Shown: positions 55,674-60,912 of the stretch, one piece after another | Layout of the letters: each line of letters starts with the position of its first letter | Position numbering within the stretch: the stretch's first letter is position 1 | Source of the DNA: an uncultured Gammaproteobacteria bacterium | Lineage (GTDB): Bacteria; Pseudomonadota; Gammaproteobacteria; DSM-16500 | DNA length: 64,000 bases | Reading direction: 5' to 3' | NCBI GenBank assembly: GCA_965653045.1 | Contig: CBFGYM010000002.1 | Coordinates: forward strand, 2,192 to 66,191 | Made by a program: the position numbers and the translations under genes | Notes under the pieces: model-generated | The model's input: the letters and a program-made list of their open reading frames with translations, nothing else | What the model was told of the DNA's origin: nothing | Databases searched by the model: none

Positions 55674-57062
55674 ATGAGCAACAAATTATTATTAACAACG
55701 AAATTAGACCAACGACTGTTGATGAATCAGCAGTTAAAGCAAGTTATTACTTTATTGCAAGTCACCACTTTAGAATTGAAACAACAAGTAGAACAATGGA
55801 TAGAAACCAACCCACTCATTGAAGTCAAAGAAGAACTCGAAGAAGATGATGATATTATTTATCAACATCACGAACGTGTGCGACAACATTCACTTGATAC
55901 TGATTATGAAATGCTTGAAAATGTTGCAGCGAATGAGACACTTAGAAATTTTTTACTGAAACAAACACTCGATTGTCGATGGAATGATCGTGCACAAGCC
56001 ATTGCTGAATTCATCATTGATGCCATGGATGAAGATGGTTATTTAACCATGAGCACACATGAAATTTATGATGCTATTAAACAAAACATCGAAACCGACG
56101 AATCGGAAATTATCTCAATTTTGAAAATAATTCAGACGTTTGAACCTGCGGGTGTTGGTGCGAGAAATACGAAAGAATGCTTGCTCATTCAATTAGAACA
56201 GAAAGAAAATCGCGATGACGCCTGGATAGGCGCAAAAAAAATATTATCACTTGAACAAGTTGAGTTGAGCCAACTTGATTTGAAAAGTATGATTAAAGCA
56301 ACTCAGATGGATGCAAAATCATTAACAAATGCTTTTCAACTAATTAAAACGCTTAATTTAAGCCCGGGGAAAACATTTTCAGGGTTGAAAGAGCAAACCA
56401 TTGAACCTGAAATTGTGGTTCGTAAAGTGCGGGGTGAATGGATCGCAGAATTAGCTAATTCATTAATGTCTCGTATCGACATTAATAAAGAATATCAGGG
56501 CATCATTAAAAAAAATGCAAGAGATAAAACATTTAAAACCATAGCTATACAATTACAAGAAGCAAAATTATTAGTCAATGGTTTGAAAAGACGTAATGAG
56601 ACATTATTAGCCGTTGCTAACTATATTGTAGCGCATCAGGGCGATTTTTTTGAAGAAGGTGCCTTTGAAATGCGACCGATGAATTTAATTGATGTTGCAA
56701 GTGCCTTAAATTATCATGAATCAACCATATCACGTATTACAACCGGAAAATATATGGCAACACCACGGGGTATGTTTGAGCTTAAATATTTTTTCCCCGG
56801 TCAATTAAAAACAGTTCAAGGACGTGCACGCTCTTCTATCGCTGTGAAGGCGATGATTAAGCAAATAATAGAAGAAGAAACAACCGTGTGTAGTGATGAA
56901 GAAATTACGAAACGTTTAAATGAAGAAGGAATCACAATTTCAAGACGAACAGTCACTAAATATCGAGAAGCGATGCATATTCCCTCTTCTTACCAAAGAG
57001 CGAATACGAAATGGATGAGTCACGAGCTTGAACAAACGGATGATAAAGAAGGTTTAGAATGA
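55674..57062 (+). CDS. rpoN: RNA polymerase sigma-54 factor
   Basis: 462 aa. Region I LLMNQQLKQVITLLQVTTLELKQQVEQWIETNPLIE, an acidic region II, the HTH ESTISRITTGKYMATPRGMFELKYFF, and the RpoN box ISRRTVTKYRE. Starts 16 nt after fliP with a GGAG RBS. Confidence 0.9.
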   Translation: MSNKLLLTTKLDQRLLMNQQLKQVITLLQVTTLELKQQVEQWIETNPLIEVKEELEEDDDIIYQHHERVRQHSLDTDYEMLENVAANETLRNFLLKQTLDCRWNDRAQAIAEFIIDAMDEDGYLTMSTHEIYDAIKQNIETDESEIISILKIIQTFEPAGVGARNTKECLLIQLEQKENRDDAWIGAKKILSLEQVELSQLDLKSMIKATQMDAKSLTNAFQLIKTLNLSPGKTFSGLKEQTIEPEIVVRKVRGEWIAELANSLMSRIDINKEYQGIIKKNARDKTFKTIAIQLQEAKLLVNGLKRRNETLLAVANYIVAHQGDFFEEGAFEMRPMNLIDVASALNYHESTISRITTGKYMATPRGMFELKYFFPGQLKTVQGRARSSIAVKAMIKQIIEEETTVCSDEEITKRLNEEGITISRRTVTKYREAMHIPSSYQRANTKWMSHELEQTDDKEGLE

Positions 57063-58501: not shown

Positions 58502-60912
58502 TGGGCGAAATAATCGAAAAGACAGCAGAATCAGAATCCGTTTCTGCACATGAATTGCAGATTATTACTGAAAATTTTTTAAACCAATATCAGGTGATTA
58601 CCTTCGATTGTTTTGACACATTATTGTGGCGAAATGTTGATAAACCAATGGATGTATTCTTTACGATGGCTAAAAAGCCTATGTTTCAACAATTGAATTT
58701 TACAGCAGATTGTCGTATTAAATGCGAAGAAATAGCAAGACGAAGGAAATTTGTTGAAAAAGGTAAGCGTGAAGTAGGCTATCGCGATATTTATTTAACC
58801 TTTAATTCAGCACTCAGTGATGATCAAATTGAAGCATTATATGAAGAAGAGCTATCTTCGGAAATTGAGCATTGTTATGCATTTCAACCAATGGTTGATA
58901 TTTTAAAACAATCGATTAATTTAAATAAAAAGGTATTCATCGTTAGCGACACATATTTATCAAAAAAAGGCTTGAAAAAATTACTAGGCGCACACATTGA
59001 TACTGGCGTCATTAATCAATTAACAGATATTGTTGTTTCGTGTGAATACGGCGTAAGTAAATCGCAAGGGTTACACCAGTTAACGCGAGAACGATATAAA
59101 ACAGAAAAAATAGTACATTTTGGTGATCATGAAATTGCCGATGTGAAAGCCGCAGTGCGAGAAAACATAGATGCTATTCACTTAAAACAATATAACGACA
59201 TATTGAAAACGCATCAAAAATTGAAACAAAATGCACTGTCGTTATTTGACGCTCGTGTGAGAGAGAGCGAACCTGCATATGCATTATTTAAAAATGTACA
59301 CGCGCAAAAAAATATTACAGCACTAATACCAGAAACCGTATTGGGTTATTACGCGTTGGGGCCTTTGATGGTTGCGTTTGCAATGGGATTAAAAAATCAC
59401 TTAGATGCGCTTAGAAAATCTGGCATTCATCCGAAGATATTATTTTTATTACGTGACGGATATTTGCCACATCAAGTTTTTAATACCTTATTTCCCGAAG
59501 AAACAGCTAAAAAAGTTCGGATTAGCCGTTTTGCTTCTTATGCTGCGTCGTTTGCAGATAGATCAGACATTATCAATTATTTAGCGGACGTGATTCAAGG
59601 CAAACGTTTCGAAGATATGGCAAAACAATTATTATTTACGGAGTCAGACATTCAAGAATTGCAACGTTTGTTGGCGAATGAAAAAAACGATAAAGATAAA
59701 ATAGAATGGTTCAGAAAGCGAATTTTAACGAATAAAAATGTAACTTTGATTCTTGAGCGCTCAAGGCAATATCGTGAACGCTTATTTAAATATTTACAAT
59801 ACGAAGCGAATATCGAAAGCAATGATGAAATCCTATTGGTTGATTTAGGATATAGCGGCACTACACAAACTAAATTAAGCCCTGTCTTCTTAAAAGATTA
59901 TCAAATAAAGCTTTCAGGATATTATTTATTATCGCTATCTGTTCCTGGTTGGAAAAGCAATCGAAAAGGTTTAATTGATCCGAGCTGTTGCGATGAGAAA
60001 AGTTTACAAACGATGGTGACGTATGTTGCCTTGCTTGAACAATTATGTACAACGACCGATGAAAGCGTCATTGATTTTAACGAAGCAGGGCAACCTATTT
60101 TTGGCAAAGCAACTATTCAAGAAGCGCAGCACCAAGTTTTAAAACAAATTCAAGCGGGTGCATTGGATTTTGCATCGCAGCTTGTTGATATTATTGATTA
60201 TTTTAAAGTAATTCCTATTACTGCTTATCAACAAACAGCCATCGGTGAACTAAGCCGTTTGTTATTTTTACCCACGCTGCCCGAAATGAATTTATTACAG
60301 CATTTTAAATTTGATTTAAATTTAGGAACGACCGATACGTTTAATGTGTTTGATGCTTCTAAAGGGCTAACAGGGTTGAAACAACGCGGTTTATTTTTCA
60401 TGGAAAAGAACTTAAAAAATATGCGCATGAATTACCCGGCCGAATTGCGCTATGCCGGCATCGAGTTGACTTTAACGTTAATTAGTCAGCAAAGACATCA
60501 GATTGAAATGTCATTGTCTGATATGAGTTTTAGACGTTATGTTTTAAAATTAGTGGCGATGAAAGATGCTAAAAACAGTGTGAATATCGTTGAAGCTGTG
60601 CCGACTTACGATGGGTTTTATTCGTTAATTATTCCTGCAAATCAAGGGGAATATATGTTTGCAATTATGGGGAATGATGCTGAGATAATGCTACAAATTG
60701 AATCACTCGATTTAATTCCGGTGTCTCGACTATATGGCGATACTGAATCACTGCATACGAAAAGTATTTTAGAAAAAATACATTATGAAAAAATAAGTAA
60801 ATACTCAAAAAATATCATTGAGTTTCAGGCAGATTCTGCTTTAATGATTATGCCCATGGAAACGTTAACAGAAGAGAAATGTGTTTACCGATTCGTCTTT
60901 AGGCCATTGTAA
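58501..60912 (+). CDS. large protein with N-terminal HAD-like hydrolase domain (COG5610-type) and uncharacterised C-terminal 550 aa
   Basis: 803 aa. HAD-like motifs ITFDCFDTLLWR (I), FIVSDTYL (II), YGVSKSQG (III) and HFGDHEIADV (IV). Later blocks are LFLLRDGYLPHQVF and LLVDLGYSGTTQ. TAATG overlap with the HD gene. Confidence 0.6.
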   Translation: MGEIIEKTAESESVSAHELQIITENFLNQYQVITFDCFDTLLWRNVDKPMDVFFTMAKKPMFQQLNFTADCRIKCEEIARRRKFVEKGKREVGYRDIYLTFNSALSDDQIEALYEEELSSEIEHCYAFQPMVDILKQSINLNKKVFIVSDTYLSKKGLKKLLGAHIDTGVINQLTDIVVSCEYGVSKSQGLHQLTRERYKTEKIVHFGDHEIADVKAAVRENIDAIHLKQYNDILKTHQKLKQNALSLFDARVRESEPAYALFKNVHAQKNITALIPETVLGYYALGPLMVAFAMGLKNHLDALRKSGIHPKILFLLRDGYLPHQVFNTLFPEETAKKVRISRFASYAASFADRSDIINYLADVIQGKRFEDMAKQLLFTESDIQELQRLLANEKNDKDKIEWFRKRILTNKNVTLILERSRQYRERLFKYLQYEANIESNDEILLVDLGYSGTTQTKLSPVFLKDYQIKLSGYYLLSLSVPGWKSNRKGLIDPSCCDEKSLQTMVTYVALLEQLCTTTDESVIDFNEAGQPIFGKATIQEAQHQVLKQIQAGALDFASQLVDIIDYFKVIPITAYQQTAIGELSRLLFLPTLPEMNLLQHFKFDLNLGTTDTFNVFDASKGLTGLKQRGLFFMEKNLKNMRMNYPAELRYAGIELTLTLISQQRHQIEMSLSDMSFRRYVLKLVAMKDAKNSVNIVEAVPTYDGFYSLIIPANQGEYMFAIMGNDAEIMLQIESLDLIPVSRLYGDTESLHTKSILEKIHYEKISKYSKNIIEFQADSALMIMPMETLTEEKCVYRFVFRPL

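Follow-up and report, generated by a model that had tools for sequence, protein, structure and literature searches.

A predicted ribofuranosyltransferase gene at the end of a flagellar operon that also carries rpoN and an HD phosphohydrolase paralog

The last three genes of a seven-gene flagellar operon in an uncultured gammaproteobacterium encode the sigma factor RpoN, an HD phosphohydrolase and an 803-aa protein whose sequence, profile, fold and conserved catalytic residues support its assignment as a predicted dual-domain PRPP-dependent ribofuranosyltransferase (PRP+gPRT). We favor, with a probability of about 0.6, an account in which the 803-aa protein acts on a flagellar component and the HD protein is a co-expressed lineage-specific paralog. 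The 803-aa protein belongs to a large, unstudied family resembling PRPP-using ribose transferases, a kind of enzyme for which a flagellar context is unreported. The stretch of 64,000 nucleotides analyzed here is referred to as the window.

Gene Organization of the Locus

The operon has the order fliM-fliN-fliO-fliP-rpoN-HD-803 with gaps of at most 16 nt (table 1). A sequence-only reading of the window had described the last three genes as overlapping, and we recovered the same coordinates and junctions: rpoN and the HD gene share 4 nt (ATGA; GGT TTA GAA TGA over ATG ATG AAA), and the HD gene and the 803-aa gene share 1 nt (TAATG; GTG AAA TAA over ATG GGC GAA). The upstream fliM-fliN-fliO-fliP run did not figure in that reading, nor did the stop codon of the convergent motB, which adjoins that of the 803-aa gene (60912/60913). 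The overlaps had been taken to imply co-expression and, often, functional linkage. Gene overlaps within operons are ordinary and per se not beyond chance; however, the seven genes are tightly packed, a sigma-70-like promoter candidate lies between a strong terminator and fliM, and a search for convincing internal signals found none. Co-transcription is thus plausible, whereas a conserved three-gene module finds no support. The promoter candidate is a consensus match only, in a region where promoter-like sites occur at chance level (35 found vs. 31.3 ± 5.6 expected).

Table 1. Features of the window around the flagellar operon; domain boundaries in the 803-aa protein are approximate
Feature	Position	Strand	Basis
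Rep3-type replication initiator	49050–50468	-	Pfam Rep3_N + Rep3_C
parA	50690–51559	+	Pfam AAA_31/CbiA; partition module 50690–52934
parB	51556–52575	+	Pfam ParB_N
120-aa ORF of partition module	52572–52934	+	position after parB
Intrinsic-terminator-like hairpin	52988–53040	+	19-bp stem + T tract; closes par operon
Sigma-70-like promoter candidate	53230–53258	+	ATGACA-17-TAGAAT, 36 nt upstream of fliM
fliM	53294–54226	+	Pfam FliMN_C; fliM-fliP run 53294–55657
fliN	54238–54585	+	Pfam (fliM-fliP run)
fliO	54594–54908	+	Pfam FliO
fliP	54905–55657	+	Pfam FliP
rpoN (462 aa)	55674–57062	+	TIGR02395; Sigma54_AID, CBD, DBD
HD phosphohydrolase, SAMHD1/EF1143 type (480 aa)	57059–58501	+	PF01966; PDB matches
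803-aa predicted dual-domain ribofuranosyltransferase	58501–60912	+	sequence, profile, fold
HAD/PRP domain	58585–59205 (aa 29–235)	+	model + alignments
gPRT/CriT-like domain	59308–60477 (aa 270–659)	+	model + alignments
C-terminal beta-sandwich	60526–60909 (aa 676–803)	+	model + alignments
motB	60913–61836	-	Pfam MotB_plug/OmpA
motA	61805–62692	-	Pfam MotA_N/MotA_ExbB
flgA	62720–63418	-	Pfam ChapFlgA
Weak FlgN-like ORF	63428–63880	-	FlgN match weak, E 5e-4

The operon belongs to the single flagellar cluster of this genome, which spans ~46 kb, and directly adjoins the Rep3/ParA/ParB module. The Rep3 initiator is the sole PF01051 match in the genome and marks a plasmid-type replicon. It shares 35% identity (E 8e-85) with the initiator of Aquicella lusitana plasmid 3, which carries a flagellar regulon, the flagellar cluster being plasmid-borne in that species; NZ_LR699116.1 has the same gene order, Rep (minus strand)/ParA/ParB/small ORF. 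Aquicella is said to lack a flagellum in a published account (PMC8896642), and the cluster may therefore be silent in laboratory culture.

The gene previously read as rpoN is indeed one, scoring 400 bits on TIGR02395 (cut-off 277) and containing all three sigma-54 Pfam domains, and this single match is the genome's only sigma-54. Strong sigma-54 activator genes number only two, both inside the flagellar cluster, and rpoN and FlhA are found in the same 14 of 38 genomes of the genus. Thus, rpoN travels with the flagellar cluster, and with two cluster-encoded activators RpoN may serve as a dedicated flagellar sigma factor.

The 803-aa Protein Resembles Dual-Domain Ribofuranosyltransferases

The 803-aa protein has no Pfam match of any kind at E values up to 10. 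A phmmer search matched it to 7SHG (E 8e-11, aa 27–496), and a profile of its family matched Bcs3 (E 3e-23) and 7SHG (E 1e-22). Structure prediction, a step proposed in the sequence-only reading, gave an AF2 model (pLDDT 87.1, pTM 0.85) whose fold is closest to the same two enzymes, both in Foldseek (Bcs3 E 5e-22, 7SHG E 7e-19, followed by HAD-only matches at ~1e-6) and in VIA-align (7SHG Z 24.8 with 511 residues aligned; Bcs3 Z 24.5 with 567 aligned, model 29–659 against Bcs3 379–1013; HAD-only matches Z 16.3 or less). The earlier description of the protein as HAD-like holds for the first quarter only, where 18 family members show little or no variation in the HAD motifs D36-x-x-D39-T40, S149-D150, K187 and G208-D209...D214. 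Bcs3 R679/D680 and E818, which PMC10299916 names as PRPP/ribose ligands and which were mutated there, align with the invariant R318/D319 and D448, although the alignment of the Bcs3 5-phosphate-binding residues S707, R708, R712 and T825 with the family is imprecise. The C-terminal beta-sandwich of ~130 aa has no clear relative (best structural match Z 6.1).

Enzymes of this class use a two-step PRPP chemistry, as set out in PMC10299916, PMC12096443 and PMC11231755. Applied to the 803-aa protein, this chemistry would have the middle domain move ribose-5-phosphate from PRPP onto a hydroxyl of the acceptor with release of PPi; the N-terminal HAD domain would then take off the 5-phosphate, and the beta-sandwich may help in acceptor selection. 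The sequence shows no sign of a signal peptide or membrane span, and the acceptor, most likely a flagellar component and foremost flagellin, would be modified in the cytoplasm before export.

The 803-aa Family Is Linked to Flagellar Genes

Among the 38 genomes of the genus, FlhA occurs in 14 and the 803-aa family in 13, that is, in 13 of 14 FlhA-positive and none of 24 FlhA-negative genomes, counts that overstate independence because the genomes are related and that, given a plasmid-borne cluster, could stem from a single carried replicon instead of a functional dependence. The single flagellar-gene-positive genome without the family is G051. Flagellar genes are present at 10 of the 13 genus loci, and elsewhere the family adjoins fliA, fliK/fliC or flgL; one A. 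lusitana copy lies 14 nt after fliA. The window's genome has a second paralog with 31% identity, located after a sigma-54 activator gene in the same cluster, 18 kb beyond the window. Scanning species genomes more widely, we found a flagellar gene within 10 kb at 46 of 78 loci of the family and within 2 kb at 31, the nearest one being most often fliC (10 loci), fliA (5) or flgL (5). These loci come from several phyla, with Coxiellaceae, Burkholderiales, Xanthomonadales, Sphingomonadales, Polyangiales and Opitutaceae represented. Because the enzyme resembles ribose transferases and its family sits in the flagellar clusters of many bacteria, the 803-aa protein likely ribosylates the flagellum. 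Gene neighborhood and co-occurrence suggest that a flagellar component is probably ribofuranosylated, with flagellin as the first candidate in a neighborhood compatible alike with flagellin, another axial protein or a non-protein acceptor. A flagellar glycan or phosphosugar modification was among the functions previously proposed for the trio, and for the 803-aa gene it fits both enzyme class and linkage well.

It is also conceivable, if unlikely, that the 803-aa protein modifies a cell-surface polysaccharide (LPS or capsule) or another non-flagellar acceptor and came to lie among flagellar genes by co-inheritance on a mobile replicon. Every characterized relative acts on polysaccharides (PMC10299916, PMC12096443, PMC11231755), and known members of the class modify glycans and not proteins. 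A flagellar gene within reach is missing at 32 of the 78 loci; annotation of ten of them showed unrelated housekeeping contexts for nine and only an FlgE_D2-domain gene for the other, and one of the 32 (L111) adjoins a polysaccharide pyruvyl transferase gene. Carriage on one replicon, as in A. lusitana, could likewise produce the co-occurrence within the genus. However, hitch-hiking in one genus cannot explain a linkage that recurs in distant lineages with differing gene orders (fliC, fliA, flgL, motB, rpoN). Moreover, the surroundings of the copies in the window's genome yielded neither export nor polymerase genes for polysaccharides, and plasmid-borne polysaccharide-type relatives match only aa 25–594 at ~24% identity, without the C-terminal domain. 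Searches of the flagellar cluster of this genome found no other glycosyltransferase, in keeping with a flagellar role of the 803-aa protein, but also no glycan-priming transferase, which counts against it.

Listeria GmaR is a glycosyltransferase that doubles as an anti-repressor, and an 803-aa protein acting mainly as a similar regulator or checkpoint factor of flagellar expression would explain positions after rpoN, a sigma-54 activator gene or fliA. Both paralogs in the window's genome directly follow sigma-54-system genes, and fliA is the near gene at 5 of the 31 loci with a flagellar gene within 2 kb, as it is for the A. lusitana copy. Nevertheless, the family keeps both catalytic centers invariant, which points to an enzymatic function, fliC and not a regulator is the most frequent near neighbor, and Pfam searches at E values up to 10 turned up neither a DNA-binding nor a regulator-binding domain, making a mainly regulatory role scarcely probable.

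The HD Gene Is a Lineage-Specific Paralog

The proposed SAMHD1-type identity of the HD protein is borne out by a PF01966 match, by PDB matches to 2hek, 2o6i, 9mr6, 2q14 and SAMHD1, whose SAMHD1/EF1143-type entries align with the HD core over aa 8–235 or further (E 1e-29 to 3e-34), and by all three motifs quoted for it, which are present in the translation. A core copy of the gene (G000:C1:10318-11670 in the window's genome) is found in 36 of the 37 other genomes of the genus, upstream of a GlmU-like gene at 21 of 23 other loci, and only the window's genome and G022 carry a further full-length copy. The paralog forms a conserved clade of its own (eight rows of alignment A2, SH-aLRT 100, 62–94% identity to the window's copy) with a specific C-terminal extension of ~20–25 aa. 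Catalytic residues are invariant, and the paralog keeps every residue invariant among the core orthologs. The HD gene is thus intact and lineage-specific, a paralog of the genus's core SAMHD1/EF1143-type phosphohydrolase gene.

Of the 14 flagellar-gene-positive genomes in the genus, only two, the window's genome and G022, have the HD gene between rpoN and the 803-aa gene, which makes the trio itself lineage-specific. The expectation that both genes would stay linked in relatives consequently held for the 803-aa gene but not for the HD gene, whose ordinary ortholog elsewhere lies upstream of the GlmU-like gene.

The trio might still be a regulatory module in which the HD protein hydrolyzes a nucleotide or second messenger (dNTP, NTP or a (p)ppGpp-like compound), tuning sigma-54 or coupling flagellation to replication state. 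The start/stop overlap with rpoN is 4 nt in the window's genome and 1 nt in G022, and the paralog is intact, with its own clade and clade-specific extension. We regard such a module as quite unlikely, however, given its presence in so few genomes, the direct succession of rpoN and the 803-aa gene in G013 (8-nt gap, no HD gene between), the linkage of the core copy to a GlmU-like gene rather than to regulators, and profile searches that found no SpoT/RelA-type or HD-GYP family match in the HD protein.

Similarly improbable is a defense-type dNTPase (anti-phage dGTPase or SAMHD1-like) inserted in the operon with no flagellar role. In its favor are a likeness to SAMHD1 and to dNTP triphosphohydrolases of bacteria, a local match (E 4e-11) to the dGTPase model of PADLOC and lineage restriction on a plasmid-type replicon. 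Yet that match covers only the HD motif region (aa 56–111), the NCBIfam scores fall far below the cut-offs (dGTPase 36.9 vs. 152; anti-phage dGTPase 24.2 vs. 400), the nearest relatives are the housekeeping-looking core genes, and G022 retains tight coupling of the HD gene to both neighbors. In our preferred account the HD protein is probably an active nucleotide triphosphohydrolase-type enzyme merely co-expressed with late flagellar functions, which is the weakest part of the account. We found nothing tying its mechanism to its rpoN or 803-aa neighbors.

Comparison with Known Systems

In polar flagellates such as Pseudomonas, Vibrio and Legionella, flagellar genes are controlled by sigma-54/FleQ-type hierarchies, and rpoN usually has the housekeeping context lptB-rpoN-hpf. 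Sigma-54, two activators and FliA are likewise all encoded with the flagellar genes here; in contrast, rpoN lies outside its usual context, inside the flagellar cluster after fliP, and is present only where the cluster is (14 of 38 genomes), being plasmid-borne in A. lusitana. The HD protein shares with SAMHD1/EF1143 enzymes (2o6i, 2hek, 2q14, SAMHD1) the conserved motifs around H57-R59-N61-H62, H94-D95-H98-H103 and D176-D178-R179-D181-Y182-R185-D186, but differs from them as a clade-specific paralog with a C-terminal extension in a flagellar operon.

Known flagellin glycosyltransferases include the Maf/PF01973 nonulosonic-acid transferases, FlmG, GmaR and Fgt-type enzymes. Like the genes for these, genes of the 803-aa family lie within flagellar clusters, frequently next to the flagellin gene, and the 803-aa protein is likewise predicted to be cytoplasmic, whereas the predicted donor is PRPP instead of a nucleotide sugar and the fold is HAD plus PRT-like instead of GT-A, GT-B or Maf. 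The domain order, HAD phosphatase first and PRPP-transferase second, is that of the known dual-domain ribofuranosyltransferases, namely, the Thermobacillus composti enzyme (7SHG), Klebsiella O4/O7 ORF5/ORF7, CrpP+CriT of Bcs3, the Haemophilus influenzae type b capsule polymerase (8A0C/8A0M), and the M+C domains of Campylobacter Cj1432. The 803-aa protein is only ~19–20% identical to the solved enzymes in structural alignments, carries an extra C-terminal beta-sandwich compared with 7SHG and Bcs3, and, unlike Bcs3, stands alone rather than forming part of a polymerase; its gene has a flagellar instead of a polysaccharide context, and its acceptor may be a protein.

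The Trio and Its Probable Flagellar Operon

The sequence-only reading had described rpoN, an HD phosphohydrolase gene, and an 803-aa gene as translationally coupled, and the sequence bears this out: the three open reading frames lie where they had been placed, the overlaps ATGA (rpoN/HD) and TAATG (HD/803) are present, and the three motifs quoted for the HD protein are all found in its translation. The trio is not free-standing: it continues fliM, fliN, fliO, and fliP with gaps of at most 16 nt and is most simply read as the end of a seven-gene operon, fliM-fliN-fliO-fliP-rpoN-HD-803. 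The region 5' of fliM contains a terminator with a 19-bp stem that closes the parAB operon as well as a sigma-70-like promoter candidate. Scanning positions 52500–61500 for promoters and terminators gave results at chance level (35 promoter-like matches vs. 31.3 expected, and nine terminator-like matches vs. 7.0) with a single hairpin as the sole standout; because consensus matches occur at chance level, internal promoters may exist. The sigma-54 pattern TGGCAC-N5-TTGCW with two or fewer mismatches has 39 matches in the window, where 47.3 are expected, and none of them lies 5' of fliM. At the other end, the stops of the 803-aa gene and the convergent motB are directly adjacent, so that there is no space for a terminator between the two convergent operons.

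The window also contains dispersed and tandem intergenic repeats with the common core CGTTCGTCCTGAGGAGCG...GCGTCTCGAAGGA, in units of 78 bp (2.8 copies) and 28 bp (6.9 copies), with a further inverted copy pair 5' of fliM; these look like a family of REP-like elements.

The product of rpoN is a complete sigma-54, the sole one of this genome: it scores 400.2 bits against TIGR02395 (cut-off 277.35), matches PF00309, PF04963, and PF04552 (AID, CBD, and DBD), and contains the RpoN-box-like sequence SRRTVTKYR. The genome encodes only two strong sigma-54 activators, both inside the flagellar cluster; three further PF00158 matches, in open reading frames of 769–877 aa, are weak (E values of 7.5e-6 to 1.4e-4). 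Using FlhA as the flagellar marker, we found rpoN in exactly the 14 FlhA-positive genomes among 38 of the genus, in two pieces in one of them (G002), and this distribution therefore suggests that the sigma-54 of the genus acts as a component of the flagellar module.

The window lies on a contig of 207,716 bp (C2) in an assembly of 2.13 Mb that is 99.97% complete, and the flagellar genes run on past the window end as a single cluster of approximately 46 kb. The cluster starts directly after a divergent Rep3 initiator gene, the only one in the genome, and parA-parB. Judging from the source names of matching proteins, this genus also includes Aquicella lusitana and A. siphonis (Coxiellaceae). Plasmid 3 of A. 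lusitana (PLSDB NZ_LR699116.1, 92,205 bp; loci L136 and L137) has the same Rep-ParA-ParB module together with the whole flagellar regulon, including rpoN after fliP, a sigma-54 regulator, fliA, and two homologs of the 803-aa protein annotated as "HAD family hydrolase"; its replication initiator is 35% identical to that of the window (E value 8e-85). The entire flagellar regulon of Aquicella is carried by a plasmid-type replicon, along with a sigma-54, a sigma-28, and two sigma-54 activators of its own, and this carriage explains the patchy distribution of flagellar genes. According to a 2022 phylogenomic paper (PMC8896642), Coxiellaceae have lost their flagellar genes and Aquicella has no flagellum. 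In conflict with that statement, plasmid annotation and searches reveal complete flagellar gene sets, as gene presence only, in 14 of the 38 genomes.

Elsewhere in the window, three consecutive genes for small GTPases of the Ras/Roc family (355, 376, and 364 aa) lie with a gene for a 461-aa ankyrin-repeat protein; eukaryote-like proteins such as small GTPases and ankyrin repeats are typical of Legionellales effectors. A gene of the MbnB/TglH/ChrH family is followed by a DUF2063 gene, a pairing known from loci for RiPP-type peptide modification.

Coordinates of the features discussed; positions are those of the window unless a contig (C1 or C2 of this genome, G000) or an extracted locus (L numbers) is named
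Feature	Position	Strand	Detail
rpoN	55674–57062	+	
HD phosphohydrolase gene	57059–58501	+	
803-aa gene	58501–60912	+	
Abutting stops of 803-aa gene and motB	60910–60915	+/−	
Hairpin	52988–53030		
Intergenic repeats	25307–26284; 53080–53200		
Small-GTPase and ankyrin-repeat genes	21708–27693		
MbnB/TglH/ChrH-family and DUF2063 genes	18184–19693		
Flagellar cluster	49050–64000, to ~G000:C2 98700 (with the Rep3/ParAB module)		
motBA, flgA, flgN-like, flgJ, flgI		−	Cluster part
fliK, 272-aa flagellin, fliD, fliS, flgB-L			Cluster part beyond window
Second 803-aa paralog	G000:C2:81838–84249 (L017; L022:15839–18250)	−	Cluster part, directly 3' of 337-aa sigma-54 activator
Second sigma-54 activator, then fliE-J, fliQR, flhBAFG, fliA			Cluster part
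Second HD copy of G000 (core)	C1:10318–11670		
Core HD and GlmU-like locus	C1:8818–13170 (L135)		
Short flagellin beside a family member	L022:4090–4908		One of 17
A. lusitana family copy and same-strand run	L136:11461–17473		Plasmid 3
FlgE_D2-domain gene	L074:8988–9683		Deltaproteobacterial MAG

Enzyme Class of the 803-aa Protein

The 803-aa protein has no Pfam match at E values up to 10, which includes the known families of flagellin glycosyltransferases (Maf/PF01973 and the GT-A and GT-B types), and no NCBIfam match at E values up to 0.01. Its relatives among solved structures are enzymes that combine a HAD phosphatase (PRP) with a PRPP-dependent transferase (gPRT/CriT). In a phmmer search, residues 27–496 matched 7SHG from Thermobacillus composti, named "ribofuranosyl transferase" (E value 8e-11). 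A profile built from 18 homologs, henceforth the family, matched the same structure in two segments that extend to profile position 616 (E value 1e-22), and its positions 31–475 matched chain positions 379–844 of 8a0c_A (chain index equal to native numbering plus 3), which is Bcs3, the capsule polymerase of Haemophilus influenzae type b (E value 3e-23). The AlphaFold model of the 803-aa protein (pLDDT 87.1, pTM 0.85) retrieved the same two enzymes with Foldseek at E values of 5e-22 (Bcs3) and 7e-19 (7SHG), compared with approximately 1e-6 for HAD-only chains. VIA-align gave Z 24.5 with 567 aligned residues and an rmsd of 6.7 for Bcs3, and Z 24.8 with 511 aligned residues and an rmsd of 13.2 for 7SHG, the high rmsd being due to a difference in domain orientation. 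The alignment equates model residues ~26–659 with Bcs3 379–1013, which comprises the CrpP phosphatase and the CriT transferase, whereas HAD-only chains reach Z 16.3 at most and cover just the first ~235 residues.

Residues of both active sites are conserved. Of HAD motifs I–IV (DxDxT, S/T, K, and GDxxxD), D36, D39, T40, S149, K187, G208, D209, and D214 are invariant among the 18 family members and D150 is nearly so. In the transferase domain, the HMM alignment places R318, D319, and D448, all invariant in the family, on Bcs3 R679, D680, and E818. The Bcs3 study describes D680 and E818 as the acidic pair holding the ribose of PRPP, with R679 beside it, and reports that mutation lowered activity (PMC10299916). 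The ligands of the 5-phosphate and beta-phosphate (Bcs3 S707, R708, R712, T825, and S884) align less cleanly: S342-R343 are one position off S707-R708, and T455 aligns to T825 but varies in the family (T/A/S/V). The HMM alignment stops short of S884 and of E874, the proposed base of Bcs3, for which the invariant E513 is a candidate by position only. As described for this class (PMC10299916, PMC12096443, PMC11231755), catalysis proceeds in two steps: transfer of ribose-5-phosphate from PRPP onto an acceptor hydroxyl, carried out by the transferase domain, and subsequent removal of the 5-phosphate by the HAD domain.

Residues ~660–803 form an extra domain without a counterpart in the solved enzymes; folded alone, it is predicted to be a beta-sandwich (pLDDT 86.6). 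Its best PDB match, to the C-terminal sandwich of a dextranase, reaches only Z 6.1, within the noise range and too weak for an assignment; the best protein-atlas match, to an unnamed cluster, scores 0.83, below the guide value of 0.9. In sequence, fold, HAD motifs, and the residues holding the ribose of PRPP, the 803-aa protein agrees with the PRP+gPRT ribofuranosyltransferases, to which sequence profiles and the predicted structure assign it.

The Family and Flagellar Genes within the Genus

Of the 38 genomes, 13 encode family members. Every one of these carriers has FlhA, and the 24 genomes that lack FlhA have no family member; the sole exception among the 14 FlhA-positive genomes is G051, which has none either. 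Each carrier has one to three copies, which are sometimes in tandem. In nine relatives of this genome, flagellar genes were found in 10 of 13 loci, with arrangements that include fliMNOP-rpoN-HD-803 (G022), fliMOP-rpoN-803 (G013), rpoN followed by two tandem family copies (G017), and 803-fliM...rpoN (G016); in the remaining flagellar loci the copies adjoin fliA or fliK-fliC. The copies without flagellar neighbors are extra paralogs in genomes that also hold a flagellar-linked copy.

The flagellar cluster of this genome encodes a second family member, also 803 aa long and 31% identical to the first, approximately 18 kb past the window end. Its gene starts 12 nt 3' of the gene for the 337-aa sigma-54 activator, and the gene for the other activator (311 aa) is oriented divergently to these two genes.

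On plasmid 3 of A. lusitana, one of the family copies lies divergent to fliK-flagellin and is followed on its own strand by genes for a hypothetical protein, an FkbM-family methyltransferase, and a 687-aa protein with a methyltransferase domain. These neighbors hint at decoration with a methylated sugar.

The Family and Flagellar Genes beyond the Genus

When each species was represented by a single genome, a scan yielded 538 relatives, and we analyzed the best 78 loci, some of them from the genus itself, calling flagellar neighbors by tblastn with the flagellar proteins of this genome as queries. These loci are from Coxiellaceae, Burkholderiales (Hydrogenophaga, Rubrivivax, Massilia, Caballeronia, and Limnobacter), Xanthomonadales, Sphingomonadales, Caulobacter, Polyangiales/Myxococcota, and Opitutaceae. 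A flagellar gene lies within 10 kb in 46 of these 78 best loci, which are not mutually independent, and in 33 of the 52 that have at least 5 kb on both sides. For 31 of the 78 the distance is within 2 kb, the nearest gene being fliC (10 loci), fliA (5), flgL (5), motB (3), or fliD (2). By rough estimate rather than a computed control, a flagellar cluster occupies a few percent of such genomes and a 22-kb window would include part of it by chance in a few percent of cases. Ten loci without a flagellar match were annotated; nine of these family members are located among unrelated housekeeping genes and one beside a gene with an FlgE_D2 domain.

In a deltaproteobacterial MAG (locus L074), a stand-alone 231-aa FlgE_D2-domain protein is encoded ~200 nt 5' of a family member with no other flagellar neighbors. 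In MAGs assigned to Polyangiales/Myxococcota (L063, L066, L070, L083, L104, and L123) and Opitutaceae (L119), flgG-L, motAB, fliC, and fliD adjoin family members. Myxobacteria are not a group known for flagella, and the flagellar genes on contigs binned as myxobacterial are either real or a binning error.

The family comprises 13,236 representatives at an E value of 1e-3 or less and 3,614 at 1e-30 or less, mostly of ~800 aa, and the only names on its members are "HAD family hydrolase," "FMN phosphatase YigB," and "hypothetical protein." Full-length members are rare class-wide, with carriers making up 2 of the 399 other genomes scored in an even sample (one further genome was left unscored), and a contingency test against FlhA at this level is therefore impracticable.

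The HD Phosphohydrolase

The HD protein is of the SAMHD1/EF1143 type (PF01966, E value 5e-11); its motifs align to 2o6i and 2hek, and the metal ligands H...HD...D as well as the R/N/H and DxDRxDYxxRD motifs are invariant in 24 sequences. It falls far below the curated cut-offs for dGTPases (TIGR01353, 36.9 bits vs. 152; anti-phage dGTPase model, 24.2 vs. 400), and its match to the PADLOC defence dGTPase is local only. Judged by these profiles, it is a relative of dGTPases and not a member of the NCBIfam equivalogs.

A core ortholog with 55–59% identity is encoded in 36 of the 37 other genomes of the genus and as a second copy in this genome. Two full-length copies occur only in this genome and G022, where the additional one is the flagellar-cluster gene. 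In a large protein collection, a single cluster is 94% identical to the window's copy and five are 65–71% identical, after which identity drops to 60% or less. The flagellar type keeps all residues that are invariant in the core group and adds a C-terminal extension of ~20–25 aa. In a quick maximum-likelihood tree of 30 rows, a long branch sets the flagellar type (SH-aLRT 100) apart from every core copy, and the core copies of this genome and G022 pair inside the core clade. On this topology, a simple recent duplication of the core gene of the same lineage did not give rise to the extra copy. The tree is unrooted because 60 genomes from other families of the class gave no match at an E value of 1e-20 or less to serve as outgroup, and the flagellar type may reflect an old duplication, transfer, or acceleration.

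The sequence-only reading had suggested a functional linkage within the trio. The idea is borne out for the 803-aa gene through its association with flagella, but it fails for the HD gene. In G013 only 8 nt separate rpoN from the 803-aa gene, and no HD gene lies between them. G022 keeps the order rpoN-HD-803 (1-nt overlap, then an 11-nt gap). The trio is a local arrangement of limited generality. A 191-aa HD-domain protein encoded near a family copy on the A. lusitana plasmid was considered as a counterpart and rejected, as it has only the HD motif in common with the window's protein.

In this genome and in 21 of 23 other loci of the genus (from L039–L056 and L138–L142), a GlmU-like gene comes directly after the core HD gene or overlaps it. 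Because the flagellar HD gene precedes the 803-aa gene, both HD paralogs are directly 5' of an enzyme that activates or transfers a sugar with release of pyrophosphate. Such a partner for both may be meaningful or a coincidence.

A Proposed Ribofuranosylation of Flagellar Proteins

We propose that the two paralogs of this genome would put ribofuranose from PRPP onto a flagellar component before export, with Ser/Thr residues of flagellin as the most likely acceptor. Pre-export ribofuranosylation is proposed on the grounds that the sequence of the 803-aa protein shows neither a signal peptide nor a membrane span, suggesting a cytoplasmic location, and that no other glycosyltransferase was found in the flagellar cluster. 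What is observed is the enzyme class by homology, the conservation of the active sites, and the flagellar linkage, and what is predicted is the activity, donor, acceptor, and timing. All 17 flagellins collected beside family members are short (272–295 aa; D0/D1-only type), and that of this genome has a Ser/Thr-rich middle segment. The short flagellins and the methyltransferase operon of A. lusitana fit with a glycan-type decoration. A complex prediction for residues 260–803 of the 803-aa protein with this flagellin gave a score of 0.00 (mark 0.32), which counts neither way on binding.

The most far-reaching reading is that the ~800-aa family, counted at its stricter threshold, would perform a modification not described before, the direct O-ribofuranosylation of flagellin or another exported flagellar protein with PRPP as donor and built-in dephosphorylation, by a route across Proteobacteria, Myxococcota, and Verrucomicrobia that would need neither a nucleotide sugar nor a priming glycosyltransferase. 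The co-translated HD paralog would work with the transferase in this genome and G022, and the core HD protein may do likewise with GlmU, both partners releasing pyrophosphate. We consider this reading tentative, with a probability of roughly one in three. The prediction is testable in harmless carriers that can be cultured, namely Hydrogenophaga, Rubrivivax, Caballeronia, Sphingosinicella, Massilia, and Aquicella lusitana. If members of the flagellum-linked subfamily do ribosylate a flagellar protein, flagellar glycosylation would gain a sugar, a donor, and an enzyme fold that are all new to it, and thousands of genes currently called HAD hydrolases would gain a function.

Comparison with Known Ribofuranosyltransferases

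The main result of interest is a widespread, unannotated, flagellum-linked subfamily of predicted PRPP-type ribosyltransferases. To our knowledge, PRPP-dependent ribofuranosyltransferases were recognised only in 2022–2023 and solely for capsules and O antigens, and searches of the literature outside subscription journals turned up no paper that connects flagella with this enzyme class or with a HAD protein. Compared with the solved dual-domain enzymes, the 803-aa protein has an added C-terminal domain and low identity, and it occurs in a flagellar rather than a polysaccharide setting: both copies in this genome lie among flagellar genes, and no O-antigen or capsule genes are nearby. This difference in setting bears on the biological role and not on the enzyme class.
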